From the NCBI GenBank assembly GCA_964512835.1, contig CAZELA010000003.1, positions 15,516 to 79,515 on the forward strand: a DNA stretch of 64,000 nt, written 5' to 3'. Under the pieces are notes generated by a model that had not been told where the DNA came from, did no database searches, and saw only the letters and a program-made list of their open reading frames with translations. Below are positions 11,777 to 62,425 of this stretch, piece after piece; position 1 is the stretch's first letter, and every line of letters begins with the position of its first letter. The translations under genes were made by a program, and so were the position numbers. This DNA is from an uncultured Candidatus Saccharibacteria bacterium. GTDB taxonomy: Bacteria; Patescibacteriota; Minisyncoccia; Phycocordibacterales; UBA2100.

Positions 11777-13048
11777 CTAACGCTTCATGGTTTGCGGATG
11801 CGCCTCACGATGCGCAATCTCTGCACACAGACAGAGGAGCTGTGATGCTTTTCGCACATCAGCAAGACTCGGATACGTGGGTGCGATACGGATATGGGAA
11901 TCCTCCGGATCCCCCTTCACGAACGCCGCGCCGGCGGGTGTCAGCAGGAGTCCGAGTCCCCGAGCGAGCTCGACGACGCGCCGAGCACTCCCTGTCTCCA
12001 TATAGAACGAGATAAAGTAGCCGCCATCGGGCATTTCCCACCGAGCAATCCCCTTTTTTCCGATCGCGCGTTCGAGCTCGTCACACACCACCTTGAACTT
12101 CGGCCGGATGATACGGGCGTGCTTGCGCATGTGTGCCCGGATTCCGCTGAGGTTCTTCAGGAACAGGACGTGACGAAGCTGTGTGAGCTTGTCGGGACCG
12201 ATCGTTTGAGCAGCCAGCCGTTTGCGGAACCACTCCAACGAACGCGGACTCGCCGCCAGCATTGAGATGCCGGCACTTGCGAACGTGACCTTCGAGAACG
12301 AGCCGAAGATCCAAAAACGGTCTTCGGTCTTTGCCTCGCGTGCCAGCTTCATGATGTCGATGTCAGGCCGCGTGAGCGCACCAAGATGGTGCTCACGATA
12401 CGCGTCATCCCACATCACGATGAATCGGCCGTTCTTCGGCTTTAGTTCTGCAATCGCGCGCGAGACCGAGCGCGAATACGAAACTCCGGTCGGATTTGAA
12501 TACCGCGGCATGCACCACATACCGACAACGTCCGGATCCTGGATGCGATCCCTCACGATGTCCATGTCCGGACCGTTCTCGTTCATCGGTACCGGCACCA
12601 TGCCGATTCCGAGATTCCGCAAGATCTGAAAGTGCCGATCGTATCCCGGCTCCGGACAGATGAACTTCGGACTCCCCGCAGACCATCCGCCACGGAGCAT
12701 GTGCTCGGTTATCACCGAATACATGAGTTGCAGGCTCGAATTGCCGGTCACCAGCGTATTCTCCGGTCGCGTACCCAGGTATGCCGCGCAGAGCTTCCGT
12801 GCTTCCGGCAAACCGTCGAGGTGCGGACTGTAATTGCGACAGTCGAAACCGTCCTTCGACCGGAACTCGCCGATGGCGAGCATTGCGTTCGAGAGGCTCA
12901 ACTGTTCCTCGCTCGGTTTGCCCCGAGTCATATCAAGACTCAGTCCTTCGCGCTTGTGCGCGTCGTACCGTGCCCACAGGTCGTCCAGGTGGAGCCTGGC
13001 AGCACTCGGTGAATCCAACATCGTTCGCCCTTTCTGTTTGTTGACCAT
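11777..13048 (-). CDS. PLP-dependent aminotransferase, class I/II fold
   Basis: Length and motifs ('GSFSKVTFASAGISM' around the PLP lysine, 'SNPTG'). Specific substrate not determinable from sequence. Confidence 0.8.
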   Translation of the reverse strand: MVNKQKGRTMLDSPSAARLHLDDLWARYDAHKREGLSLDMTRGKPSEEQLSLSNAMLAIGEFRSKDGFDCRNYSPHLDGLPEARKLCAAYLGTRPENTLVTGNSSLQLMYSVITEHMLRGGWSAGSPKFICPEPGYDRHFQILRNLGIGMVPVPMNENGPDMDIVRDRIQDPDVVGMWCMPRYSNPTGVSYSRSVSRAIAELKPKNGRFIVMWDDAYREHHLGALTRPDIDIMKLAREAKTEDRFWIFGSFSKVTFASAGISMLAASPRSLEWFRKRLAAQTIGPDKLTQLRHVLFLKNLSGIRAHMRKHARIIRPKFKVVCDELERAIGKKGIARWEMPDGGYFISFYMETGSARRVVELARGLGLLLTPAGAAFVKGDPEDSHIRIAPTYPSLADVRKASQLLCLCAEIAHREAHPQTMKR

Positions 13049-17868: not shown

Positions 17869-19908
17869 CTACTTAACGACGGTTGCCTGCGCGGGCAGGA
17901 AGCCCGCATCCGGACGCACGGTTTGACTGGTCGATGTCTTACCGATCTGACCCAGATTCGTGGTGACATCCGGCTCGGTCTTTCGGGTGACTGCTGCACC
18001 CGTCGCTTCGTCGATACCGGTCAGGGTGACGTCCTGCACCAGCACCGGCTGATCCCCGATCTGACTTGTCGAAGGCGTGAGTCCGACCGAAATCGCTATC
18101 TGTCGCGGCTGCGTACCGTTCACGCCCACCCCCGGCTCAACCGATCCGAGGTCCCATGTGAATGTGCCGTTGTATTGGTTAAACGTCAGGTTCTCGCTAC
18201 GCGGCGCATGTGAGCCGATCCACCGAACGTACGTCGGCAATTTCGCCGTAAGTTTTGCATTCGTCAGTTTACTGGTCGTGTTGGTAACGGTGAATACGAG
18301 CGCGTAGGCAGTCTCCTCCCCGGCCTTCGGAGGCAACGGTCCGGCGACCCCGAACGGATTCTGCGCATACAACGCCTGAGAAGCGAGCTGCAAGTCTGAC
18401 GCAAGACGCACCTGTGCACGCGCGGTCGACTGCAGATTCTGCGGCACGCCCGTTTCCGAAAGACGCTTTCCGGCAGCGTTGACACTGATGTCGATCTTCG
18501 GATCGCTCGATGATGTATTCGGCGCAGGCATAGTAAACGAGAATGAGACGATACCGCGTGCTCCGGGAATCAATGCCTTGAGCGTTCCGTTGGTCGTACT
18601 CTTGTCCCAGATGACCGTGTCATCGGACGAGCGGTAGAATCCGTCGTTCACGCGGACTTTTTCTCCGTCGATCCCGAGCCCAGAAAGTCGCGCAACGATT
18701 ACCGCGTCGTCGATCTCGACTGAAAGATTGTTTTTATATTCGATGGAAACCGTCACGGTAGAGCCGGGTGCCGCAATCGGTACGCTTTTTGTCGGCTGTG
18801 TCTCGAAGTCGCTCGCTGCTTCGGCGGCCTGCGAAGTATTCGTCGAGATCGCGAGCCCGAGGAATGCCTGTGCGATACGCATCTCGTACGAATTCGACGC
18901 CAGTTTTGTGGTGACGGCGGTCGACGTAGAGTTTCGCGAACCCGCGGTCACGCGGAACACGCGTTTATCTCCCTGTTCCCCGGAGAGCGTCCCCTGCACG
19001 AGAATCGACTTCCGTTGACCGGGGGTGAAGTCGCCCAAAAGCCAGGTACTCCCTTTCGACGGACCGGGAGACGCGCTGGAGAATTTAAATCCGAACGGGT
19101 ACGTCATATCGACGACCACGTCGCGCAGCGGCGCGCTCGCATTCGACGCAACACTGACCGTGAACTGTACCGGCTGACCGGAGGTCGTCTGATTGTTACC
19201 GTCGATGGAAATCGACAGCGGCGACGATGTGAATGTGAGCGCATAATCGCGGTCGGCAACGAAAATGGCGCTCGATCCCTGAACACGGTATTCGAGCTCT
19301 ACTTTTACATTACCGCTTTGACCGCCTGAGCCTGAAAAGACCGCAGATATCGTTCCCTGTCTCCTGCCGCCCGGCTCGATGGTACCGAGCGACTGACGCA
19401 GGCTCGGTAGGTCGGTGGAGAAATCCGCGACCGAACGTGTGCCGGGCGGAAACGTAACAAGCAGGTCGGCGAGCTCGAGCGGGACCCGGTTCCTGTTCAC
19501 GACCGTGATCTGAAGTTCAACCGGCTCACCTCCCGCCACCTGCGGCGGTCCGGAGACGCTGATATCGATATTGCCGGGGTTCGCCGGATGCGACCCGCCG
19601 CCGAGCAAAAAGTAATACCCGAAGAACAGCGCCGCGCCGATGAAAAAGACCATGGATGCCACCAAGAGCCATCGGAGTATTGCGCGCGTGGTACCGATGA
19701 ACGGCGGAGCGACTTTCATTTTATCCATCTTCGGCTCCGGCATTTTCCAGTCGTCGGAAACGAGCTCTCGGTCATGTTCCAATTCGCGGCGTGGCCGTTC
19801 ATGCAGCTGTTCGGAGATCTTGCGTGAGTACATCGCTCGTCGCAGCTGCTCGATCCGTTCCTGTTCATGATCGGGAGGATTCATCGGGTCCATTCTACCA
19901 TCGGACAT
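17869..19908 (-). CDS. Large membrane-anchored protein: cytoplasmic Glu/Arg-rich N-terminus, one TM helix, ~570-aa extracellular beta-rich repeat region
   Basis: Start moved to MSDGRMDP (ATG with rc 'cat' at 19906-19908). The TM segment is 'ILRWLLVASMVFFIGAALFFGYYFLL'. The extracellular part is Ser/Thr/Gly/Val-rich, resembling DUF11/CARDB-type repeats (family call uncertain). Confidence 0.65.
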   Translation of the reverse strand: MSDGRMDPMNPPDHEQERIEQLRRAMYSRKISEQLHERPRRELEHDRELVSDDWKMPEPKMDKMKVAPPFIGTTRAILRWLLVASMVFFIGAALFFGYYFLLGGGSHPANPGNIDISVSGPPQVAGGEPVELQITVVNRNRVPLELADLLVTFPPGTRSVADFSTDLPSLRQSLGTIEPGGRRQGTISAVFSGSGGQSGNVKVELEYRVQGSSAIFVADRDYALTFTSSPLSISIDGNNQTTSGQPVQFTVSVASNASAPLRDVVVDMTYPFGFKFSSASPGPSKGSTWLLGDFTPGQRKSILVQGTLSGEQGDKRVFRVTAGSRNSTSTAVTTKLASNSYEMRIAQAFLGLAISTNTSQAAEAASDFETQPTKSVPIAAPGSTVTVSIEYKNNLSVEIDDAVIVARLSGLGIDGEKVRVNDGFYRSSDDTVIWDKSTTNGTLKALIPGARGIVSFSFTMPAPNTSSSDPKIDISVNAAGKRLSETGVPQNLQSTARAQVRLASDLQLASQALYAQNPFGVAGPLPPKAGEETAYALVFTVTNTTSKLTNAKLTAKLPTYVRWIGSHAPRSENLTFNQYNGTFTWDLGSVEPGVGVNGTQPRQIAISVGLTPSTSQIGDQPVLVQDVTLTGIDEATGAAVTRKTEPDVTTNLGQIGKTSTSQTVRPDAGFLPAQATVVK

Positions 19909-20014
19909 GCTTGACGGTTCCTCATTATCGCGTTTTGATGGACAGCGGCGTATCGAGTATCGATAAATGATTTTTGGTGAACGAATGTGGGAACACGCGA
20001 CATGGGAGCAGTGA

Positions 20015-20242
20015 GTGAAGATCACAGTGCGGCTGGCAATGTTGGGATCATCATCCCGAAAACCTATCAAGGGTGAGCTGGAAGTAATGGGGCCGTGTGA
20101 CACCGGAAGTATCGTGACAACGGTGACCGGTGCCATTATAGGTAAAATGAGTCGCGTTCTCGCCGTCGGCGGGATCGAGATCGAAGTAGAACCGTCGGTG
20201 TACGAACACTATCAAAAACAAGGCTGGAAGGACGCGTACTGA
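20015..20242 (+). CDS. Small hypothetical protein (75 aa)
   Basis: Sits in the 376-bp aclA/upstream intergenic region with a GGGAGCAG-type RBS and a strong terminator after the stop (GCCGCCGGA-gat-TCCGGCGGC plus TTTTATTTTT, 20257..20283). Codon usage matches neighbouring genes. Confidence 0.5.
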   Translation: MKITVRLAMLGSSSRKPIKGELEVMGPCDTGSIVTTVTGAIIGKMSRVLAVGGIEIEVEPSVYEHYQKQGWKDAY

Positions 20243-20256
20243 ACGCGAGCACCGCC

Positions 20257-20283
20257 GCAAAGGCCGCCGGAGATCCGGCGGCT
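20257..20283 (+). terminator. Rho-independent terminator after the small ORF
   Basis: Perfect 9-bp stem plus T-run, read from the sequence. Confidence 0.65.
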
Positions 20284-20284
20284 T

Positions 20285-22072
20285 TTATTTTTGGTCGTCC
20301 TCGCGCTCAAAGAGCAGTTCGTCCGGAAGACGGAACAGTCCTTCGTCGTTTCGTTTTTGCTCTATGAAGTGAGAAATGAATCCGACGGTACGCGGGATCA
20401 CGAAGAGCGCGTTAAAAAATTCGGCCTCGATGAGCTCCCCGATCTCGGAATCGGTGTATCCTTCTTTTTCCTGCAGCAGATCCAAAAGCAATGCCGCCAT
20501 CACCCCGTCCACGTTCAGTATCAAATTACCGTTTTTGCCGGTCGTGACCGCTTCGATCGCACGAGCAAAGTCATAGTGAGGATGATTCGAGAGCAGTGAA
20601 GCGAACTCTGAGAGCGCCGCGACGCGCGGATCAGGAATGCCGACACGATATTTCCGGTGCCCGATACCGGAAAGCAGCACGCCGGATTTATTTTTTGCCT
20701 CCACATATGCAGCGGCGTCGTGAGCGCCTGTCACCCCTTCGTGCCAGCTCCGGGCGGCCTCATTTACTGCACCGCCGAAACGCGGACCGACGGTAAGGAG
20801 TCCCGCTGCGAGCGACGCAACCATGTCTTTACCTGCCCGCGCCGTCACCATCGTGTTGACCGCGCCGGAGACATGACCGCCATGATCGATCAGGAGCTCA
20901 AAAATATTTTCCACGAATGCGGCCGTCTCAGCGGAAACCCGTTTACCGAGGAGTGCATGCAGCGCGGCGGACGCAAACGCATTCTGCGGCTGTTGCACGA
21001 GCGTACCGTCTTTCACGAAGCGCGGAACCTCGTCGAGGTCCACAATCTTGCGCGATGAGAGAATGCTGTGTTTCCGGTTCATGAACAGGGCTGTATCAAT
21101 GACGGTATCACGAACGGACGGGAGCGGAAGGTCGCGAAGTGCCTGCAAAAAAAGCGGAAACGACTCCGGGGCAACAGCGCCCGCGGCATTCAGCGCGTCG
21201 CGCTTCGCACGCGCACTTTCATCTTTGCGTGCAACGAGCGCCTTCGCATGACCGAACTGCATACGCTCGTCGAACGCTTCGTCGATGACGCCCGCAACAT
21301 AACAGATGATAGGCTTCGTCAGTTTTTTTGTCCGCATGAGATCGACGATCTCGTACTCGTCAGAACCGCCGAGCTCACCGAAATACACGATCGCTTTTGT
21401 GGCCACATCCCCTTCTGCGAGCGCAAGCACCTGCGAGAGCGCAGTGACCGGGAACCGATCTCCACCGATTGAGAGCGAGAAGGAAACGCGCTTGCCCGCA
21501 TGTGACACGGCGCGGATCAGCTCGTTGGTCATGCCGCCTGAGGTAGAGACGACCGCGACCGACCCTTCGGTCGCCAGATGCCCCGCCTCGATCTGCGCTG
21601 CGTCGGTGCCGCCGATCGCACCAAGCTTCAGATAATGCGGCACAAGCAGCCCGACACCCGAAGGTCCGGCGATAAGATATCGCTCACCATAGCGGGCAAT
21701 GAGTTCGGTCGCGTGACGCTCAGGCACGTTTTCTGCGAACAAGTGTGCTCCGAGCGCATCCGGAAACGCATCGAAAAAACCGCAGGTCGTTTGGAACGTG
21801 CGTCTACCCGACTGCGCATTGAGGAGCCACTGTATTCGCGCCCGCATACGCTCCGGTATTGCAGCGTAGTCCCGGTAGCATGGGATCAAAATTTCGCGTG
21901 CTCCAAAAAAGAATTTTTGAGCCTTTCTCGTACCGGCGATGATACCGACGACCGATGGGGCAGATTTACCGGACAAAGCGTCGAAATCCAGAATCGACTG
22001 CACGATGCCGGCATGATTACCGACGACCAATATGCCGTCCCCTCCCGTGCGTATGTGTTCGAGTATCGTCAT
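20285..22072 (-). CDS. aclA: ATP-citrate lyase alpha subunit (CoA-binding/phosphohistidine domain plus citrate-synthase-like domain)
   Basis: Motif-level match to the C-terminal half of eukaryotic ACLY: 'MQFGHAKA' vs 'VQFGHAGA' catalytic His; 'HGGHVSGAVNTMVTARAGKDMVASLAAGLLTVGPRFGGA'; 'GIGHRKYRVGIPDPRV'; 'NLILNVDGVMAALLLDLL'; 'ALFVIPRTVGFISHFIEQKR'. 595 aa, typical of bacterial AclA. Confidence 0.88.
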   Translation of the reverse strand: MTILEHIRTGGDGILVVGNHAGIVQSILDFDALSGKSAPSVVGIIAGTRKAQKFFFGAREILIPCYRDYAAIPERMRARIQWLLNAQSGRRTFQTTCGFFDAFPDALGAHLFAENVPERHATELIARYGERYLIAGPSGVGLLVPHYLKLGAIGGTDAAQIEAGHLATEGSVAVVSTSGGMTNELIRAVSHAGKRVSFSLSIGGDRFPVTALSQVLALAEGDVATKAIVYFGELGGSDEYEIVDLMRTKKLTKPIICYVAGVIDEAFDERMQFGHAKALVARKDESARAKRDALNAAGAVAPESFPLFLQALRDLPLPSVRDTVIDTALFMNRKHSILSSRKIVDLDEVPRFVKDGTLVQQPQNAFASAALHALLGKRVSAETAAFVENIFELLIDHGGHVSGAVNTMVTARAGKDMVASLAAGLLTVGPRFGGAVNEAARSWHEGVTGAHDAAAYVEAKNKSGVLLSGIGHRKYRVGIPDPRVAALSEFASLLSNHPHYDFARAIEAVTTGKNGNLILNVDGVMAALLLDLLQEKEGYTDSEIGELIEAEFFNALFVIPRTVGFISHFIEQKRNDEGLFRLPDELLFEREDDQK

Positions 22073-23220
22073 GAGTGTATGTAGTGTATTGCCTCTTCGA
22101 CCGCGCGCGTGATTACCTCGTTCGAGCCATATACCGCACCGAGCAGCGATTCTCGTTCCAGAAAGTCATACATGAGTGAGAGCCCCGCGGCTTCGTTCGG
22201 ACCGCCGCGTCGGACGAATACTTTGATCCCCTGCTCACGCATACGCGGAGCGACCTCGGTAAGGGCGTCAATGATTCCAAGAAAGGTCTTTTTTACATCA
22301 GTGAAATTCGCGACGCCGCCCGCGATCACGAGTGCCTTTTTCGGTGCAGTTGAACCGAGCATGAGTGCAGCGATCTGCCGGGCATACAGAAATGTTTCCT
22401 CGCGTGTCGGGCCGCCGCTGTATTCGCCGTAATTCGCGAGCGCTCCGCCAAGTCCCTGCACCTGCACTTCATCGGCGATGACGATCGAGCCCCCGCCGCC
22501 TGAGAGCAGAAAGAATAGTGCCCCGTTCGGGTTGATGACCGAAAGCTTAAGGGAGGCCGGTGTCGTCGCGGCGAGTGCTTCTACCGCGTCCTCTGCCGGA
22601 TGTTTCGAGCGTGCGGTTATTACATCGTCACCCTTCCACGAATCACGTACAAAAAACTCGCCCGCACTGTCCACCAGCGCAGCAGCATCAAGGAGTTCCG
22701 CCATACCGTCTTGAACCACAAGCGGATTGATCTCGAGGAACGCAAAGAATTCTTTGTCGAACGCGACGAACACGCGCTCAAGAAATGGAGCGGGCACACC
22801 GGTCGTCTCGGCGATCTGCGCAACATCATTCGCGGTACGGATCAGAAATGTCTGCACGGCCTCCGGGTGCGCCTCGATGTCGACGCCGCCGTCCCGTGCG
22901 TACAGCACGCGGACACCTTCGCGCACGCGTTCGAATGAAATATAGCGGTCGTTCTGTGCATCGTGTTCAAAATACGGGTCGAGGATGAACTGAGAAAACC
23001 CTTTGGCTTCCCACGAGGCGATCGCGGCCCTGATGTCCGCCTCGCCCTTGTCCACAACGACAAGCCCCTGCTTAAAACGCTTCTTGATTCCCTGATCGAC
23101 TTTTGCGACCCACCGACCGGCCGGTATCGATATAGCACCCGAGCGGAGCTGTACGCCTGAATAGCGCTCGCCGAGCAAGATCTTTTTTGCTGTATATTCG
23201 CTCAGTTTTACGCGCGCCAT
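22069..23220 (-). CDS. aclB: ATP-citrate lyase beta subunit (ATP-grasp, succinyl-CoA-synthetase-beta-like)
   Basis: 'LEINPLVV', 'SLKLSVINPNG', 'GGGGSIVIADE...LANYGEYSGGP', 'VIAGGVANFTDV', 'VFVRRGGPNE' match the ACLY N-terminal region. Its stop overlaps the aclA start (ATGA coupling). Confidence 0.88.
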   Translation of the reverse strand: MARVKLSEYTAKKILLGERYSGVQLRSGAISIPAGRWVAKVDQGIKKRFKQGLVVVDKGEADIRAAIASWEAKGFSQFILDPYFEHDAQNDRYISFERVREGVRVLYARDGGVDIEAHPEAVQTFLIRTANDVAQIAETTGVPAPFLERVFVAFDKEFFAFLEINPLVVQDGMAELLDAAALVDSAGEFFVRDSWKGDDVITARSKHPAEDAVEALAATTPASLKLSVINPNGALFFLLSGGGGSIVIADEVQVQGLGGALANYGEYSGGPTREETFLYARQIAALMLGSTAPKKALVIAGGVANFTDVKKTFLGIIDALTEVAPRMREQGIKVFVRRGGPNEAAGLSLMYDFLERESLLGAVYGSNEVITRAVEEAIHYIHS

Positions 23221-23816
23221 GTATCGTTTTCAAACATTGCACTCCAGTCGTTGTCAGGATCGGAGTACTCCTCAGAATAAATAAAACCAAGCTTATTTGC
23301 GAGCGCGACACTTGCCTCGTTATGTGAACTGACGCCGGCCCACAGCTTTGCATCAGGATGTCGAGCCTTGTAATCATCGATCACATACCGCATAAATCCC
23401 GTCATAAGACCCTGACCGCGGAAGCGCCCGTAGGACCGGTACACGACCGTGTGTGCGTCACCCTTCGCCTGTGCATACTCCTCTTTCAGTTCGGCCTCGG
23501 TTAGATAGCGAAGCGACTTACGCCCGATAGGTTTCGGACCGAACCATGCAAGCGCCGCCAAGCTACCTTCGGAACTGACGAGCGCATATGGTGTACGTTC
23601 CTTTCCGAACCACTCTTCGTAGGAGCCTTCGACGAATCGCTTCCGGTCGGATGTATGTGCATGGAGGTCGTGATCGCCGTCATCGGATGAATACGATATC
23701 AATTGCCTGACGAGCGCATGATCGAGTCCGATGACGATATCGAACTGCTCACCCGCCTTCGACTGCATTGAACCGATCGATGCGCGTTCAAAAATGGGCG
23801 GGATTTGAATCATCAT
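23208..23816 (-). CDS. GNAT-family N-acetyltransferase (putative)
   Basis: 'RGQGLMTGFMRYVID' looks like motif A; size ~200 aa. Weak call. Confidence 0.5.
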   Translation of the reverse strand: MMIQIPPIFERASIGSMQSKAGEQFDIVIGLDHALVRQLISYSSDDGDHDLHAHTSDRKRFVEGSYEEWFGKERTPYALVSSEGSLAALAWFGPKPIGRKSLRYLTEAELKEEYAQAKGDAHTVVYRSYGRFRGQGLMTGFMRYVIDDYKARHPDAKLWAGVSSHNEASVALANKLGFIYSEEYSDPDNDWSAMFENDTWRA

Positions 23817-23828
23817 GAGAGACTACCG

Positions 23829-24398
23829 CTACAAATGAGTCTCCGCAATCGCGCGGTTGATTGATTTGAGCATTGTTTCCCGCATGATCTCCGCTTCCTG
23901 CAAGTGGGCGCTCTCGAACGATGTATGTGAAAAGAGCGTCGTGCGCAGTGCTTCCTGCGAGATGTACCCGAGCGCAAACAGCACGCGTGCGACCGAGACG
24001 ATCTCGATCGTCGGGAGCGCATCATCGCTCGCACTCATGCACGCGCGGTGTGATTCCGCGAGCACATCAAAAAGATACTCGTTCTTCTCCTCGCCGGCGA
24101 CGAGCCGTTGTGTGAGCTCACACACGCGCACGAATGCATACAGTCCGGCACCGCTTTTCGGGAGCGAGCGGGCGGTCGCACCCGCTAATCGCCAGCCCCG
24201 CTTACCTTTTACGAGGGACGCATTCGCATAACTGTAATTCTGCGTCGCGTAGCGCATCTTTGAATGCTCGGAACGTATCGCACTTGCGCGTGCACGCACA
24301 AGCCCGAAATCGCGGGTCATGAGCGAAACAACACGGTCTGCTTCGCCGCGGGCATCTCCCCCCAATACGATCACATCGGTGTGGTACTTCTGGTACAT
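23829..24398 (-). CDS. Possible DNA repair protein RecO-like (short)
   Basis: N-terminal OB-like 'DVIVLGGDARGEADRVVSLMTRDFGLVRARA' resembles RecO. Only 189 aa, so weak. Confidence 0.4.
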   Translation of the reverse strand: MYQKYHTDVIVLGGDARGEADRVVSLMTRDFGLVRARASAIRSEHSKMRYATQNYSYANASLVKGKRGWRLAGATARSLPKSGAGLYAFVRVCELTQRLVAGEEKNEYLFDVLAESHRACMSASDDALPTIEIVSVARVLFALGYISQEALRTTLFSHTSFESAHLQEAEIMRETMLKSINRAIAETHL

Positions 24399-24400
24399 CG

Positions 24401-27283
24401 TTAGATCTCCAACGTAACACGCTTCTTCGGTGCTTCGACAAAATCGATCGCGAGCACCCTGGTCGCGCCGGAGAGTTCACCCACGAATTGCTTGAGGATC
24501 GCAATCTCGTCGCTCGGCGCTTCGATGACCGCGCGTGTAACGGAGTCTGCCGGTGCGAGATTCGCATCCTTGCGAGCACCCTGCAACAGGCGTCGTACTT
24601 CGCGCACCAGTCCTTCCTGCAACAACTCTTCCGTGACGGTGGTATCGAGCGATACGCCGACACCGCTCTCAAACCGGACCTCTTTGACGTTCACCTCATC
24701 CTTAATGAGTTCAAGAAACTCATTGATGCCCGGTGTCTCGGCGCCATACACATCGGTCGTGCCGATCGCGAGCATGCGCAGCGGCTGACGGACATTCAAC
24801 TTCTTGTCCTCTCGCTCTTTGAGCGCCTGGGACACAATGAGACGCGTCGCGAACATGCGTGTAAGCAGCTGCGCAGCATCGGTGTCATGCGCCAGCATTT
24901 CCGGCCACGTAGAAAGGTGGACGCTTTCTTCGTCCTCTCCTTCGCGTACGGCTTGGAACAGGTACTCAGCATAGAACGGCATGGTCGGAGCCATCACGCG
25001 CGAGAGCGTATGCAGCACATAGCGCAGCGTCGCCAGCGCCGCTTTTTTATCCGAACCCTCCTCTTTGAATCGCTCACGGGAACGGCGCAGGTACCACACG
25101 GACAGGTCGTCGATGAACTGCGGAAGCGGCCGCACTGCCTCGTCGAGCTCGTACGCCTCGAACCCTTCGGTTGCTTCACCGACCAGGGCATTTACACGAG
25201 CGATGATCCACCTGTCCAGAACGTGTGCACTCTTGAAGTCTCGGACCGTACCGTCTTCATAGAGTTTGTAGAATTCGAGCACGTTATTGAGGCGACCGAT
25301 GTTCTTCTTGAGCGTTTCGTCGACTCCGTTTTCCGAGAAGTTCAGGTTCTCTGCTTTCAAGAGCGGCGACGAAAGCATGTACAAACGCAACGCGTCGGCT
25401 CCGTACTTGTTGATCACATGCATCGGGTCGGGATAATTGTTGAGACGTTTCGACATCTTCTTGCCGTCTTCGGCGAGCACGATCCCGTGCGCCACGACGT
25501 TCTGAAACGCGTTCACATTGAACGTTGCTCCTGCGAGCACGTGCAGGTAGTAGAACCATGCACGGAACTGACCCGTGTATTCGGTTATAAACTGGGCCGG
25601 GAATGTTTTCTCGAACCGGTCTTTGTTCTCGAAGGGATAGTGCACCTGGCCGTACGGCATCGATCCTGAATCGAACCATGTGTCGAGCACATCGGGAATG
25701 CGGCGCATGGTTTTGCCGCAGGTGCACGGTACGGTTACCTCGTCGATGATGTGTTTGTGGAGGTCGTCGACGGTGGTTCCGCTCGCCGCTTCGAGCTCTG
25801 CGACCGATCCGAATACACGCTGGGTTTTGCACGATTCGCACACCCACATCGGAATGACGCTCGCCCAGAATCGCTGACGGCTGATGCCCCAATCCTTGGC
25901 ACCTTCGAGCCATTTACCGAATAACCCCTCCTTTATATGCGACGGTGACCAGTTCACGTTCTGTGCGGTTCGGAGTAACTCTTCTTTCAGTTTTGAGACC
26001 GAAACGAACCACGACGATGTCGCGTAGTTCAACAGCGGAGTGTCGCAACGCCAGCAATGCGGATACGAGTGCGTGATGTTCTCTTTTGAAAAGAAGGTAC
26101 CGTGGCCCTGAAGATATTTGAGTACCGCGATGTCCATCGCCATGCGCACGCGATCCTCGGCGTTCGGCTTAACTTCCATGCCGGCAAAGTCCGTAACCTC
26201 GGACTTAACCGTCCCGTCAAAGTTCACATGCTGCACGAACGGCAGATTCACCTGCTTCAGCAGCTCCCAGTCTTCGGCACCGAATGCGGGCGCTTCGTGT
26301 GCGATACCGGTACCGCTATCAGCCGTGATGAAATCCGCTGCGTAGATTTTCCAACCGTTCTCGCGATTCTTGAGCGTTTCGTCTTTGGCGTAGTAATCAA
26401 AAAGCGGCACATACTGTTTGCCGACGAGTTCACTACCCTTCTGCGTTCGAACGACGCCATACTCCTGTCCGCCAAAAATACTATCGAGCCGATCTTTGGC
26501 GAGAACGAATCGAACCGTCTCCCCCGTCCCGTCGTCCTTTTTCTCGACAGTCACGTAGTCGATATCCTTGTTGACCGCGAGTGCGACATTTCCCGGGAGC
26601 GTCCACGGGGTTGTGGTCCAGGCGAGGTATGACAACTTCGGGTCCTCAACGGAGCGAAATTCGGCGGTCACCGAAATATCCTTGATCTCTTTGTAACCCT
26701 CACTCACCTCTTGTTGGGAGAGCGTAGTCTCGCAGCGCGTGCAGATGTGCATCGAGCGGTAGTCCTCATACACGAGACCCTTGTCGTAGATATTCTTGAA
26801 CACCCACCACACGCTTTCCATGTAGGGCTTATCCATCGTGCGGTACGCGTTCTGCATATCCACCCAGCGGCCCGTACGCGGAATGATCTGTTCCCACTCG
26901 TGCGCATACGTCATCACTTGATCACGGCACGCCTCGTTGAACTTCGCGATACCGAAGTCCTTGATGTCTTTTTTGTGTTTAAAGCCGAGCTGTTTTTCGA
27001 CGATGTTCTCGATAGGCAGTCCGTGACAGTCCCACCCCCACACACGAGGGACCGAGTAGCCGCGCATGGTTTTGTATCGCGGTACGACGTCTTTGATCAT
27101 GCCGGTCACGAGGTGGCCGTAGTGCGGCAGACCGGTTGCAAACGGCGGTCCGTCGTAGAAAACAAATTCACCGTTCGGCGCGTCCTGCGCAACCGATTTC
27201 TCGAAAATCTTGTGCTCGTTCCAAAACGCCAGGATCTCCTCCTCGCGCTTGGCAACCCCTGATTTGTCGGCGTTTTCAGCCAT
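24401..27283 (-). CDS. ileS: Isoleucyl-tRNA synthetase (type 2, eukaryote-like)
   Basis: 'PPFATGLPHYGHL' (HIGH), 'KMSKRLNNYPDP' (KMSKS), CP1 editing domain and zinc-binding Cys cluster; 960 aa. Confidence 0.97.
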   Translation of the reverse strand: MAENADKSGVAKREEEILAFWNEHKIFEKSVAQDAPNGEFVFYDGPPFATGLPHYGHLVTGMIKDVVPRYKTMRGYSVPRVWGWDCHGLPIENIVEKQLGFKHKKDIKDFGIAKFNEACRDQVMTYAHEWEQIIPRTGRWVDMQNAYRTMDKPYMESVWWVFKNIYDKGLVYEDYRSMHICTRCETTLSQQEVSEGYKEIKDISVTAEFRSVEDPKLSYLAWTTTPWTLPGNVALAVNKDIDYVTVEKKDDGTGETVRFVLAKDRLDSIFGGQEYGVVRTQKGSELVGKQYVPLFDYYAKDETLKNRENGWKIYAADFITADSGTGIAHEAPAFGAEDWELLKQVNLPFVQHVNFDGTVKSEVTDFAGMEVKPNAEDRVRMAMDIAVLKYLQGHGTFFSKENITHSYPHCWRCDTPLLNYATSSWFVSVSKLKEELLRTAQNVNWSPSHIKEGLFGKWLEGAKDWGISRQRFWASVIPMWVCESCKTQRVFGSVAELEAASGTTVDDLHKHIIDEVTVPCTCGKTMRRIPDVLDTWFDSGSMPYGQVHYPFENKDRFEKTFPAQFITEYTGQFRAWFYYLHVLAGATFNVNAFQNVVAHGIVLAEDGKKMSKRLNNYPDPMHVINKYGADALRLYMLSSPLLKAENLNFSENGVDETLKKNIGRLNNVLEFYKLYEDGTVRDFKSAHVLDRWIIARVNALVGEATEGFEAYELDEAVRPLPQFIDDLSVWYLRRSRERFKEEGSDKKAALATLRYVLHTLSRVMAPTMPFYAEYLFQAVREGEDEESVHLSTWPEMLAHDTDAAQLLTRMFATRLIVSQALKEREDKKLNVRQPLRMLAIGTTDVYGAETPGINEFLELIKDEVNVKEVRFESGVGVSLDTTVTEELLQEGLVREVRRLLQGARKDANLAPADSVTRAVIEAPSDEIAILKQFVGELSGATRVLAIDFVEAPKKRVTLEI

Positions 27284-43116: not shown

Positions 43117-43172
43117 AGTCGTCCGCAAAAATAGAATTTGCAGACGCTGCGCGTCTTTAATTATTTTTGGGC
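43117..43172. repeat. 56-bp direct repeat, copy 2, abutting/overlapping the 3' end of tRNA-His
   Basis: As above. It is also flanked by inverted 11-mers cccgatagtcg / cgactatcggg, the latter being the tRNA-His acceptor/T-stem. Confidence 0.85.
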
Positions 43173-43242
43173 GACTATCGGGAATCGAACCCGAATCGAG
43201 GGCTCCACAAACCCTAGTGTTAACCGTTACACCATAGCCGCC
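43169..43242 (-). tRNA. tRNA-His (anticodon GTG) with an encoded G-1
   Basis: Hand-folded cloverleaf: G-1 opposite C73; acceptor GCGGCTA/TAGTCGC; D-stem GTGT/ACAC; anticodon stem AGGGT/GCCCT; loop TTGTGGA; T-arm TCGGG-TTCGATT-CCCGA. Confidence 0.85.
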
Positions 43243-47891: not shown

Positions 47892-47964
47892 GGGCGATTA
47901 GCTCAGTTGGTAGAGCAACGCTTTTACACAGCGAAGGTCACAGGTTCGAGTCCTGTATCGCCCA
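47892..47964 (+). tRNA. tRNA-Val (anticodon TAC)
   Basis: Acceptor GGGCGAT/ATCGCCC; D-arm GCTC-AGTTGGTA-GAGC; anticodon loop TTTACAC; T-arm ACAGG-TTCGAGT-CCTGT. Confidence 0.85.
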
Positions 47965-48182: not shown

Positions 48183-48254
48183 TGTCCCCGGTTGGAATCG
48201 AACCAACATAACCGGCTTAGAAGTCCGGTGTTCTATCCATTGAACTACAGGGAC
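48183..48254 (-). tRNA. tRNA-Arg (anticodon TCT)
   Basis: Reverse complement folds as acceptor GTCCCTG/CGGGGAC (one G-U); D-arm GTTC-AATGGATA-GAAC; anticodon loop CTTCTAA (A31-G39 mismatch); T-arm GTTGG-TTCGATT-CCAAC. Confidence 0.75.
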
Positions 48255-58427: not shown

Positions 58428-58512
58428 GGAGGGGTGGCAGAGTGGTCTATCGCACCTGTCTTGAAAACAGGAGTCTCGCAAGGGACCAAGAGTTCGAATC
58501 TCTTCCCCTCCG
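58428..58512 (+). tRNA. tRNA-Ser (anticodon TGA)
   Basis: Acceptor GGAGGGG/CCCCTCC; anticodon stem CCTGT/ACAGG; loop CTTGAAA; long variable arm; T-arm AAGAG-TTCGAAT-CTCTT; discriminator G. Confidence 0.88.
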
Positions 58513-62353: not shown

Positions 62354-62425
62354 GCTCCCGTCGTTCAACGGATAGGATGCATCCTTGCGGAGGATGTGAT
62401 GTAGGTTCGATTCCTGCCGGGAGCA
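62354..62425 (+). tRNA. tRNA-Arg (anticodon read as GCG)
   Basis: Acceptor GCTCCCG/CGGGAGC; anticodon stem CATCC/GGATG; loop TTGCGGA; T-arm GTAGG-TTCGATT-CCTGC (one G-U). D-stem has two G-U pairs, so the anticodon call is moderate. Confidence 0.6.

Follow-up and report, generated by a model that had tools for sequence, protein, structure and literature searches.

The aclB-aclA gene pair carried by a stretch of 64,000 nucleotides from an uncultured Candidatus Saccharibacteria bacterium (the window, analysed over its whole length) apparently encodes a functional heteromeric, two-subunit ATP-citrate lyase (ACL; EC 2.3.3.8), a reading that follows from domain architecture, residue conservation and phylogeny. 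The enzyme probably cleaves imported citrate to acetyl-CoA and oxaloacetate, and the same three lines of sequence evidence support the supply role that a preliminary description had proposed for it. Citrate cleavage in CPR and DPANN is an idea already in print (2019, 2025, 2026), to which the window contributes one well-characterised case and some new detail. For a Gracilibacterium ACL, cleavage of citrate into acetyl-CoA and oxaloacetate has been put forward (PMC6851277), as it has for ACL-bearing Patescibacteria and DPANN of groundwater (PMC13014828), while aclAB has been noted in Saccharimonadia/Patescibacteria MAGs (PMC12577380, PMC13014828).

Organization of the aclB-aclA locus

The features on which the analysis draws are as follows.

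11777-13048, minus strand: aspartate aminotransferase type Ic, interconverting oxaloacetate and aspartate (Pfam PF12897, 1.4e-128; NCBIfam NF053594, 495.8 bits against a cut-off of 435)
20259-20286, no strand: GC-rich palindromic hairpin of 12 bp, from a terminator scan and the sequence, overlapping the last two bases of the aclA stop codon
20285-22072, minus strand: aclA, 595 aa, a CoA-binding/CoA-ligase part with the phospho-histidine and, fused to it, a citrate-synthase-homology (citryl-CoA lyase) module
20330-20992, minus strand: citrate-synthase-homology/citryl-CoA lyase module of AclA, residues 361-581, from the translation
21239-21259, minus strand: phospho-histidine loop QFGHAKA of AclA, from the translation, with His275 equivalent to human His760 and Lys277 in place of the usual Gly
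22069-22072, minus strand: ATGA overlap of the aclB stop and the aclA start, read from the sequence
22069-23220, minus strand: aclB, 383 aa, ATP-grasp and citrate-binding domains, the ACL beta or small subunit
23208-23816, minus strand: type-A GNAT acetyltransferase, 202 aa (Pfam Acetyltransf_1 and Acetyltransf_3)
23829-24398, minus strand: recO (ORF coordinates; Pfam, NCBIfam)
24401-27283, minus strand: ileS (ORF coordinates; Pfam, NCBIfam)

The ATGA overlap reported in the preliminary description is present, and as a sequence feature it is a mark of predicted translational coupling; aclB and aclA are also neighbours on the same strand in every related locus that shows both. The GNAT, recO and ileS genes named there all sit immediately upstream in the same orientation: the GNAT overlaps the aclB start by 13 nt, and recO and ileS are closely packed above it with gaps of 12 and 2 nt. 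recO and ileS probably share a transcription unit with GNAT-aclB-aclA, so that the tight ileS-recO-GNAT-aclB-aclA array would be transcribed together with housekeeping genes. At the hairpin beyond aclA, the T-run is on the plus strand and the minus-strand side has only an A-rich leader. A promoter scan gave no enrichment over shuffled sequence, and an Rfam scan of the window returned five tRNAs only, none of them near the locus. A horizontal-transfer island was rejected on composition, as the GC contents of the two 2-kb bins covering 20001-24000 (0.57 and 0.56) are within the window's range. Annotation covered most ORFs of 150 aa or longer in the window and gave housekeeping functions, glycosyltransferases, pili and transporters. 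The host itself is a tiny CPR bacterium of the Paceibacteria/Kaiserbacteria kind, with a poor metabolism.

Identification as ATP-citrate lyase

Both subunits carry the domains expected of ACL. AclB matches the Pfam families Citrate_bind (PF16114, E=2.5e-49, 167.7 bits against a cut-off of 26.8) and Citrate_synth_N (PF24948, E=1.9e-25, 90 bits against a cut-off of 83), the latter being the ATP-grasp domain that had been assigned to one of the subunits. AclA matches Ligase_CoA (PF00549, E=8.9e-13), PF13607 and, at its C-terminus, Citrate_synt (PF00285, E=7.3e-27), which agrees with the citrate-synthase-like domain described earlier. In sequence searches of the PDB, AclA matched human ACLY at 5e-89, Methanosaeta concilii ACLY-B at 1e-87 and Chlorobium limicola AclA at 1.5e-57, and the corresponding values for AclB were 8e-51, 4.9e-48 and 4.2e-35. 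As sequence matches, these are far beyond chance, and together with the Pfam domains, standing far above any succinyl-CoA synthetase (SCS) or citryl-CoA synthetase (CCS) match, they bear out the initial assignment of both ORFs to ACL.

The preliminary description had also allowed for a reversible citryl-CoA synthetase/lyase pair. The relevant proteins of Hydrogenobacter thermophilus, citryl-CoA synthetase (6hxq) and citryl-CoA lyase (CCL; 6hxp), have homologous domains and achieve the same overall conversion, but their lyase is a separate protein, whereas in the window it is fused to the alpha subunit, AclA, as in true ACL. They are not the closest family either: AclA matched the CCS small subunit at 1.7e-17, the lyase at 7.9e-14 and SCS-alpha at about 1e-18, AclB matched the CCS large subunit at 1.5e-10, and the NCBIfam citryl-CoA lyase and SCS models scored well under their cut-offs against the window pair. 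With the fused lyase module and E-value gaps of 40 to 70 orders of magnitude, a CCS/CCL or SCS paralogue was rejected, and the pair alternative falls with it.

Conservation of catalytic residues and the GHAKA loop

The catalytic and citrate-binding residues that were checked are all conserved in the window pair and nearly all invariant across about 70 relatives (67 CPR homologues of AclB and 71 of AclA, at 44-100% identity). In the alignment, AclB K40, the G of EYSGGP, N305, F306, T307 and R338 correspond to human K58, G309, N346, F347, T348 and R379; the citrate-binding motifs read EYSGGP, ANFTDV and FVRRGGPN, and K40, N305, T307 and R338 are invariant in 67/67 sequences. AclA E114, the equivalent of human E599, is invariant in 71/71, as are H275 and K277, and H275 aligns with human His760, as expected of the catalytic His previously recognised in QFGHAKA. 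AclA H397, H472, D522, R561 and R581 correspond to human H900, H975, D1026, R1065 and R1085, and 69-71 of the 71 sequences retain them; the first four lie within the lyase module, R581 is its final residue, and the C-terminal domain thus retains its key residues. Such conservation, read from sequence, indicates purifying selection.

By homology to solved enzymes, ATP bound in the ATP-grasp domain of AclB would phosphorylate His275 of AclA, and the phosphoryl group would pass to citrate in the citrate-binding domain of AclB (N305, T307, R338), giving citryl-phosphate. Attack by CoA would yield citryl-CoA, whose cleavage to acetyl-CoA and oxaloacetate would require Glu114 and the C-terminal module (H397, H472, D522, R561), which is predicted to form the oligomer core as well.

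The phospho-histidine loop departs from that of other ACLs. In the set used for the tree, the K277 position holds Lys in 31/32 sequences of the CPR clade, with Gly in the remaining one (P0126), and in 0/40 outside it, where Gly occurs in 36, Ser in two and otherwise Trp or Ala; the forms GHAG(A/S), GHGGS, GHMGS or GHSGS account for about 36-38 of these 40 sampled sequences. The near-invariant GHAKA loop of the clade, set against the GHAGA of other ACLs, appears to be undescribed. This substitution might mark a shift in function, with the pair being a diverged paralogue that is CCS/CCL-like, SCS-like or an ACL fold acting on a different substrate, and the restriction of GHAKA to the clade, where it is invariant, and its virtual absence elsewhere in the ACL/SCS superfamily sample would fit such a shift, as would the position of human R976, which varies among R, K and L within the clade. 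Nevertheless, such divergence is very unlikely given that the equivalents of G309, N346, F347, T348 and R379 and of E599, H760, H900, H975, D1026, R1065 and R1085 are all conserved, that AclA carries the lyase module in the same chain, as true ACL does, that CCS, CCL and SCS matches are much weaker, and that the tree places the clade within ACL.

Phylogeny and distribution

In a neighbour-joining distance tree rooted on SCS-alpha-annotated outgroups, the window ACL falls within a CPR clade (bootstrap 99) that nests inside an archaeal (DPANN)/eukaryote-type ACL group, together with DPANN, Saccharibacteria-labelled and fungal ACLY sequences, the clade labels resting on few named sequences. The phylogenetic check suggested earlier thus places the pair inside the ACL clade and away from SCS and CCS. 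The Saccharibacteria-labelled sequence (the P0146 cluster) belongs to a separate GHAGA group that is weakly sister to the window's clade (bootstrap 51).

The preliminary description had linked the enzyme to the reductive TCA (rTCA) cycle of Chlorobi, Aquificae and Nitrospirae, and the tree goes against this link, since the window enzyme groups with the archaeal (DPANN)/eukaryote-like type and the ACLs of Chlorobiaceae (P0189) and Nitrospinae (P0193) lie in a clade of their own, split off with bootstrap 96. In favour of a citrate-cleaving step in CO2 fixation like that of Chlorobi, Nitrospirae or Aquificae, ACL does serve as an rTCA marker in many metagenome surveys (e.g. PMC12930757). Among the annotated ORFs of the 64-kb window, however, there is no 2-oxoglutarate:ferredoxin oxidoreductase, fumarate reductase, aconitase, isocitrate dehydrogenase or citrate synthase, nor is a partner found among the annotated neighbour-family representatives of related loci, and CPR of this type have small genomes without TCA enzymes (PMC6851277). 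A role in the rTCA cycle is extremely improbable, and an rTCA-type ACL was rejected on the tree and on the absence of partners among annotated window genes.

The C. limicola AclB/AclA (PDB 6hxj) resembles the window pair in its two subunits, aclB-aclA gene order and chemistry, but it is a weaker match (198.6 bits against about 300 for AclA, 124.6 against about 175 for AclB) and works in a complete rTCA cycle, of which the window gives no evidence. ACLY-A/B of Methanosaeta (Methanothrix) concilii (PDB 6hxi, 6znw) has the same two-gene architecture and domain split, ties with human ACLY as the top PDB match and shares the archaeal/eukaryote-type branch; the window subunits differ in being shorter (595 versus 631 aa and 383 versus 421 aa) and in belonging to a bacterium, and AclB lacks about 18 N-terminal residues present in the human and archaeal proteins. 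Human ACLY (PDB 6hxh, 6poe, 6uuz) shares all mechanistic residues with the pair, and fused eukaryote-type representatives are about 35-36% identical to it by BLASTP, but the eukaryotic enzyme is a fusion into one polypeptide of about 1100 aa that includes a regulatory linker and has a GHAGA loop, unlike the two translationally coupled genes and GHAKA loop of the window. The eukaryotic enzyme makes acetyl-CoA from imported citrate outside the TCA cycle, which is the role proposed here.

Among CPR, the Gracilibacterium ACL (Sieber et al. 2019, PMC6851277) is likewise an archaeal-like, two-subunit enzyme with the same proposed role, and the aclAB of Saccharimonadia/Patescibacteria MAGs (PMC12577380, PMC13014828) is likewise archaeal-like with that role. 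These earlier reports cite a GHAGA active site, whereas the GHAKA clade of the window is a separate one, of Paceibacteria/Microgenomates. The aclBA pair is a recurrent trait and no oddity, because it occurs in at least 121 species-level genomes, of which those with a title are mostly Patescibacteria MAGs; in view of this and of the earlier CPR reports, its characterisation as unexpected was overstated.

Association with GNAT acetyltransferases

In about 44 of 49 core-clade loci the immediate neighbour of aclBA is a GNAT, of type A in 20 and of type B in 24, the two being unrelated families at the same position. A single diverged family was rejected, as hhalign covers only the acetyl-CoA motif A (49 columns). 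The type-A family comprises 94 proteins, and its AF2 model (pLDDT 90.8) has its closest folds among Pat/Rv0998 lysine acetyltransferases and RimL/RimJ. aclBA adjoins this GNAT in two different backbones, and the GNAT occurs without ACL in three loci (L085, L088, L086), by which an obligatory partnership was rejected. Both the direct flanking by two unrelated GNAT types and the behaviour of aclBA as a present/absent cassette beside the type-A GNAT appear to be undescribed.

For type B, an identity as a eukaryote-like GNA1 (glucosamine-6-P N-acetyltransferase) tying ACL to UDP-GlcNAc synthesis was set aside as an idea only, the match being unspecific: PDB matches to GNA1 range from 1e-10 to 5e-4, the best NCBIfam model is RimI, below its cut-off and alongside many unrelated GNATs, and glmS and murB lie beside aclBA in few loci only.

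It is conceivable, if quite unlikely, that aclBA in Paceibacteria moves or can be lost as a cassette and is wired in function to a Pat/Rim-like GNAT specific to the lineage. ACL might then be a dedicated acetyl-CoA generator for the GNAT, with host citrate as the acetyl donor for specific protein or metabolite acetylation, or the GNAT might feedback-regulate ACL by acetylating Lys277, two residues past the phospho-His. Pat, acting on the catalytic Lys of acetyl-CoA synthetase, is an analogue of the second version. The frequent flanking, the swapping of two GNAT families, the two backbones and the proximity of the type-A fold to protein acetyltransferases speak for such wiring. Against it stand the presence of the GNAT in loci without ACL and the invariance of Lys277 in a Microgenomates-like subclade as well, which has no GNAT neighbour.

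Direction of the reaction and proposed role

The direction of ACL is not fixed by sequence, because the reaction is close to equilibrium. In reverse, the enzyme would act as an ATP-yielding citrate synthase (acetyl-CoA + oxaloacetate + ADP + Pi -> citrate + CoA + ATP), providing a fermentative CPR cell with one substrate-level ATP, with oxaloacetate drawn from aspartate via the nearby aminotransferase and citrate excreted. The near-equilibrium favours this reading, as does Desulfobacter postgatei, for which Moller et al. 1987 reportedly described a reverse, ATP-conserving ACL. The type Ic aminotransferase 7 kb away fits it as well, human ACLY in vitro combines acetyl-CoA with oxaloacetate into citryl-CoA (PMC10115795), and CPR bacteria rely on substrate-level phosphorylation (PMC6851277). 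Operation in reverse is nonetheless unlikely: no acetyl-CoA source (PFOR, PDH) was found in the window, a citrate exporter was likewise not identified, the neighbours that recur (GNATs) consume acetyl-CoA, and those seen at single loci (acetate-CoA ligase, kbl) produce it by other routes, which suits a supply module better than a sink.

Genomic context favours the acetyl-CoA-forming direction, through the GNAT flank (about 44/49) and through two loci with other acetyl-CoA-forming routes, one with aclBA next to an AMP-forming acetate-CoA ligase (L058) and one with it next to tdh-like and glycine C-acetyltransferase genes (L049). Under citrate cleavage, the preferred reading, citrate from the host or environment would be split as in the eukaryotic cytosol and not for CO2 fixation; its acetyl-CoA may feed acetylation reactions such as that of the adjacent GNAT, and its oxaloacetate may pass to aspartate via the type Ic aminotransferase, the sole oxaloacetate-linked enzyme among the annotated genes of the window. 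No citrate transporter is recognisable in the 64 kb, and neither a citrate transporter nor a malate dehydrogenase/PEPCK partner is among the recurrent neighbours checked in related loci (EF-G, CofD, PRPP synthetase, YceG, MurB, GlmS, a Mg-chelatase-like ATPase, a deaminase and UvrD), none of which was informative.

Implications

Where ACL is taken as a marker of rTCA autotrophy in metagenome surveys, the window's clade would be a false positive, and the GHAKA loop and GNAT linkage offer concrete handles for biochemistry. CPR are thought to live off host metabolites, and a conserved, intact archaeal/eukaryote-type ACL that has no TCA cycle around it in the window suggests that citrate is a currency of exchange and that acetyl-CoA is supplied in a eukaryote-like, 'cytosolic' manner in these ultra-small symbionts.

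Identity of the aclB-aclA pair

The array ileS-recO-GNAT-aclB-aclA is tightly packed in the window, with gaps of 2, 12, -13 and -4 nt, and aclB and aclA adjoin in every locus where both genes were seen. The features of this region are as follows.

22069..23220, minus strand: aclB, an ORF of 383 aa with PF16114 and PF24948
20285..22072, minus strand: aclA, an ORF of 595 aa with a CoA-ligase domain and a C-terminal citrate-synthase domain
21239..21259, minus strand: QFGHAKA motif of AclA
23208..23816, minus strand: type-A GNAT acetyltransferase, beside aclB
20259..20296: strong 12-bp GC hairpin that starts on the final two bases of aclA's stop codon
20015..20242, plus strand (opposite aclA): 75-aa ORF between aclA and the DUF11 gene, called as a gene by JGI and Logan
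17869..20136, minus strand: DUF11/CLIPPER-domain surface-like protein, mechanical ORF of 755 aa

The preliminary description had read the two ORFs as a complete two-subunit ATP-citrate lyase (ACL) with an ATGA overlap. Both ORFs lie at these coordinates on this strand, the ATGA shared by their ends is present in the sequence, and the enzyme is real and intact as judged by Pfam domains, structure-match E-values and kept residues. AclB carries PF16114 (2.5e-49), the citrate-binding domain specific to ACL, and PF24948 (1.9e-25), the ATP-grasp domain of ATP-citrate synthase, while AclA carries the CoA-ligase and C-terminal citrate-synthase domains. NCBIfam holds no ACL model, and its succinyl-CoA synthetase (SCS), citryl-CoA-lyase and citrate-synthase models matched AclA and AclB partially, all far under their cut-offs. 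The resemblance to ACL is beyond chance in a search of solved structures. An AclA 100% identical to that of the window is already held by JGI, under the name 'ATP citrate (pro-S)-lyase', and by NCBI.

Table. Matches of the window proteins in a search of solved structures (E-value).
AclA, human ACLY: 5e-89
AclA, Methanosaeta concilii ACLY-B: 1e-87
AclA, Chlorobium limicola AclA: 1.5e-57
AclA, SCS-alpha: about 1e-18
AclA, citryl-CoA synthetase (CCS) small subunit: 1.7e-17
AclA, citryl-CoA lyase: 7.9e-14
AclB, human ACLY: 8e-51
AclB, M. concilii: 4.9e-48
AclB, C. limicola: 4.2e-35
AclB, CCS large subunit: 1.5e-10

Among the flanking elements, the 75-aa ORF is kept in close relatives only (52% in locus L004, 41% in L002) and ends just ahead of the hairpin, which has a T-run and would terminate plus-strand transcription. 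The 5' end of the 755-aa DUF11/CLIPPER ORF has probably been set too far out: the protein is 674-679 aa long in public gene calls, and it resembles the related locus L085 from residue 80 onwards.

Conserved residues and the GHAKA loop

Residue equivalences were counted along printed alignments to human ACLY. AclA keeps the equivalents of Glu599 (motif AENVPE), His760 (QFGHAKA), His900 (IDHGG), His975 (GIGHR), Asp1026 (LNVDG), Arg1065 and Arg1085, while AclB keeps those of Lys58, Gly309, Asn346, Phe347, Thr348 and Arg379. To assess conservation, 70 AclA and 66 AclB proteins, 44-94% identical to the window, were drawn from related loci; with the window included, the sets number 71 and 67. H397 of the window AclA is kept in 69/71, the R976 equivalent varies among R, K and L, and every other checked residue is kept in 71/71 AclA or 67/67 AclB. 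H760, E599, H900, R976, D1026, R1065 and F347 are discussed in PMC10115795, where the debate over a catalytic or allosteric citrate-synthase-homology module is still running. Judged by alignment, the key residues of this module are present in the window, whether it is catalytic or allosteric. The citrate-synthase-like domain, whose loss of catalytic residues had been named as grounds for rejecting the assignment, retains the equivalents of H900, H975, D1026, R1065 and R1085, and a shifted function for the pair appears improbable.

Two positions past the phospho-histidine, Lys277 makes the loop GHAKA rather than the near-universal GHAGA (window 21239..21259, minus strand). This lysine is present in all 71 CPR (Patescibacteria) AclA proteins from loci L001-L080 and the window. 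In the tree sample of 72 sequences, it occurs in 31 of the 32 members of the CPR clade, the exception being the representative P0126 with G, and in none of the 40 sequences outside it, which have G (36), S (2), W (1) or A (1); the loops of those 36 read GHAGA, GHAGS, GHGGS or GHMGS.

Phylogenetic placement

When 1.84 billion 50%-identity representatives were searched exhaustively with HMMER, only 124 came back at E<=1e-30, and the ACL family is therefore small. A neighbour-joining rather than maximum-likelihood tree (72 sequences, 580 columns, 100 bootstraps, few representatives named) had two fused SCS-alpha/citryl-CoA-lyase-like proteins as its root. The window falls inside a Kaiser-/Paceibacteria core clade (bootstrap 100). 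This core and a Microgenomates-like group of Levy, Woese, Magasanik and Dojka sequences (bootstrap 92) together form a CPR clade (bootstrap 99). Its sister, weakly supported (bootstrap 51), is a GHAGA group with a Saccharibacteria-named sequence. On the same side as the CPR and GHAGA groups lie fused ACLY proteins, that of the fungus Paraphysoderma among them, and a DPANN archaeon (Norongarragalinales). The split from Chlorobiaceae and Nitrospinae ACL has a bootstrap of 96, with few representatives named. The phylogeny, which had been proposed as a check, sets the window on the archaeal (DPANN)/eukaryote-type side, apart from ACL of the reductive TCA cycle (rTCA). Structure scores concur, with about 300 bits to human and archaeal enzymes versus 199 bits to Chlorobium, as do one report of a CPR ACL with an archaeal look (PMC6851277) and another in which eukaryotic ACLA/B group with DPANN (PMC11976288).

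Separately, the 1003-aa protein P0130 is AclA-like with a tandem, partly degenerate second AclA-like half; it carries the citrate-synthase-homology module twice and lacks any AclB part.

Linkage to GNAT acetyltransferases

Of the 49 core-clade loci that could be scored (within L001-L054 and L064), about 44 have a GNAT as the immediate same-strand neighbour of aclBA, as shown by HMM searches. Type A (about 200 aa, the window kind) lies upstream in 19 loci and downstream in 1, and type B (about 145 aa) upstream in 22 and downstream in 2; Microgenomates-like loci, with one exception, have no GNAT neighbour. The two types alternate at one position among close relatives; they are unrelated GNAT families whose only common ground is the acetyl-CoA motif. 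Locus L020 has both types, further upstream. The type-A family is small (94 proteins, labelled RimJ/RimL-like by JGI), and its AlphaFold model has a GNAT fold (pLDDT 90.8) whose nearest structures are the protein acetyltransferases S. lividans PAT, Rv0998, PatZ, RimL and RimJ (TM 0.5-0.6). For type B the likeness is to RimI, aminoglycoside acetyltransferases and GNA1, and it is non-specific.

The linkage is not obligatory. Locus L085 (4391-7601; compared with window 17869..24398) reads ileS-recO-GNAT(A)-DUF11-glyS, with a mere 27 nt at the place of aclBA. Similarly, L088 (3059-5627) reads tdh-like-kbl-GNAT(A) without aclBA, versus tdh-like-kbl-aclB-aclA-GNAT(A) in its relative L049 (6452-12444). 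Because aclBA is thus present or absent beside the type-A GNAT in two different conserved backbones, these loci suggest that aclB-aclA is gained or lost cassette-like, as one unit. Other acetyl-CoA-forming enzymes adjoin aclBA in single loci: an AMP-forming acetate-CoA ligase directly upstream in L058 (7072-8811; 745.5 bits, cut-off 729), and a glycine C-acetyltransferase (581 bits, cut-off 460), together with a threonine-dehydrogenase-like gene, directly upstream in L049 (6452-8832).

Distribution and probable metabolic role

With each GTDB species represented by one genome, a pattern scan turned up a relative in at least 121 species-level genomes, and 80 loci were fetched. Informative record titles name Candidatus Kaiserbacteria, Paceibacterota, Parcubacteria, Patescibacteria group and Microgenomates, as well as Uhr-, Levy-, Woese- and Magasanikbacteria. 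Many TPA_asm MAGs with CPR-type ACL bear the title 'uncultured Gammaproteobacteria' or 'uncultured Candidatus Saccharibacteria' (L044, L051, L055-L062, L065-L071, L075, L078); these automated titles look unreliable, since by ACL and by gene neighbourhood the MAGs group with Microgenomates/Paceibacteria.

The window fits the usual CPR pattern: it is 89% coding and has housekeeping genes (ftsK, recA, efp, ssb, nusG, aminoacyl-tRNA synthetases, ribosomal proteins), glycosyltransferases, pilM, NAPRTase and a few transporters. Rfam matched five tRNA genes and nothing else in the window (43170..43241, 47892..47964, 48183..48254, 58428..58512, 62354..62425). Among the annotated window ORFs, which take in the majority of those with 150 aa or more, no TCA or rTCA enzyme is found, and rTCA autotrophy, for which two-subunit ACL is the signature enzyme in Chlorobi, Aquificae and Nitrospirae, is very unlikely here. 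The sole oxaloacetate-linked enzyme among these ORFs, a rare instance of amino-acid and oxaloacetate metabolism in this metabolism-poor window, is the following.

11777..13048, minus strand: aspartate aminotransferase type Ic (Rv3722c-like; NF053594, 495.8 bits, equivalog cut-off 435)

Systems of this kind, and the interpretation given to them, are already known from earlier reports. Two-subunit ACL, 'rarely detected in CPR', was described in Gracilibacterium with a proposed conversion of citrate to acetyl-CoA and oxaloacetate (Sieber et al. 2019, PMC6851277); CPR/DPANN citrate-cleavage homologues were found mis-annotated as SCS or CS (2022 preprint); aclAB was enriched in Saccharimonadia MAGs (2025, PMC12577380); and ACL-bearing Patescibacteria and DPANN were proposed to import citrate that others release (2026, PMC13014828). 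In these four no mention was found of how broadly ACL is spread through Paceibacteria and Microgenomates, of GHAKA as a signature, of the linkage to two types of GNAT, or of aclBA being present or absent like a cassette.

By homology, phosphorylation of the histidine would lead through citryl-phosphate and citryl-CoA to acetyl-CoA and oxaloacetate. The ACL reaction is close to equilibrium, which leaves some room for the main rival, an ACL that runs backwards as an ATP-conserving citrate synthase, though this seems rather unlikely. Citrate cleavage, which the preliminary description had proposed for the pair, is supported by domain architecture, tree placement and kept residues, and scavenging is favoured because no cycle surrounds ACL, the enzyme is of archaeal/eukaryote type, acetyl-CoA users lie nearby, other acetyl-CoA makers occasionally adjoin and aspartate aminotransferase can drain oxaloacetate. 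The enzyme thus probably serves these bacteria in scavenging citrate, which would supply them with acetyl-CoA and oxaloacetate.
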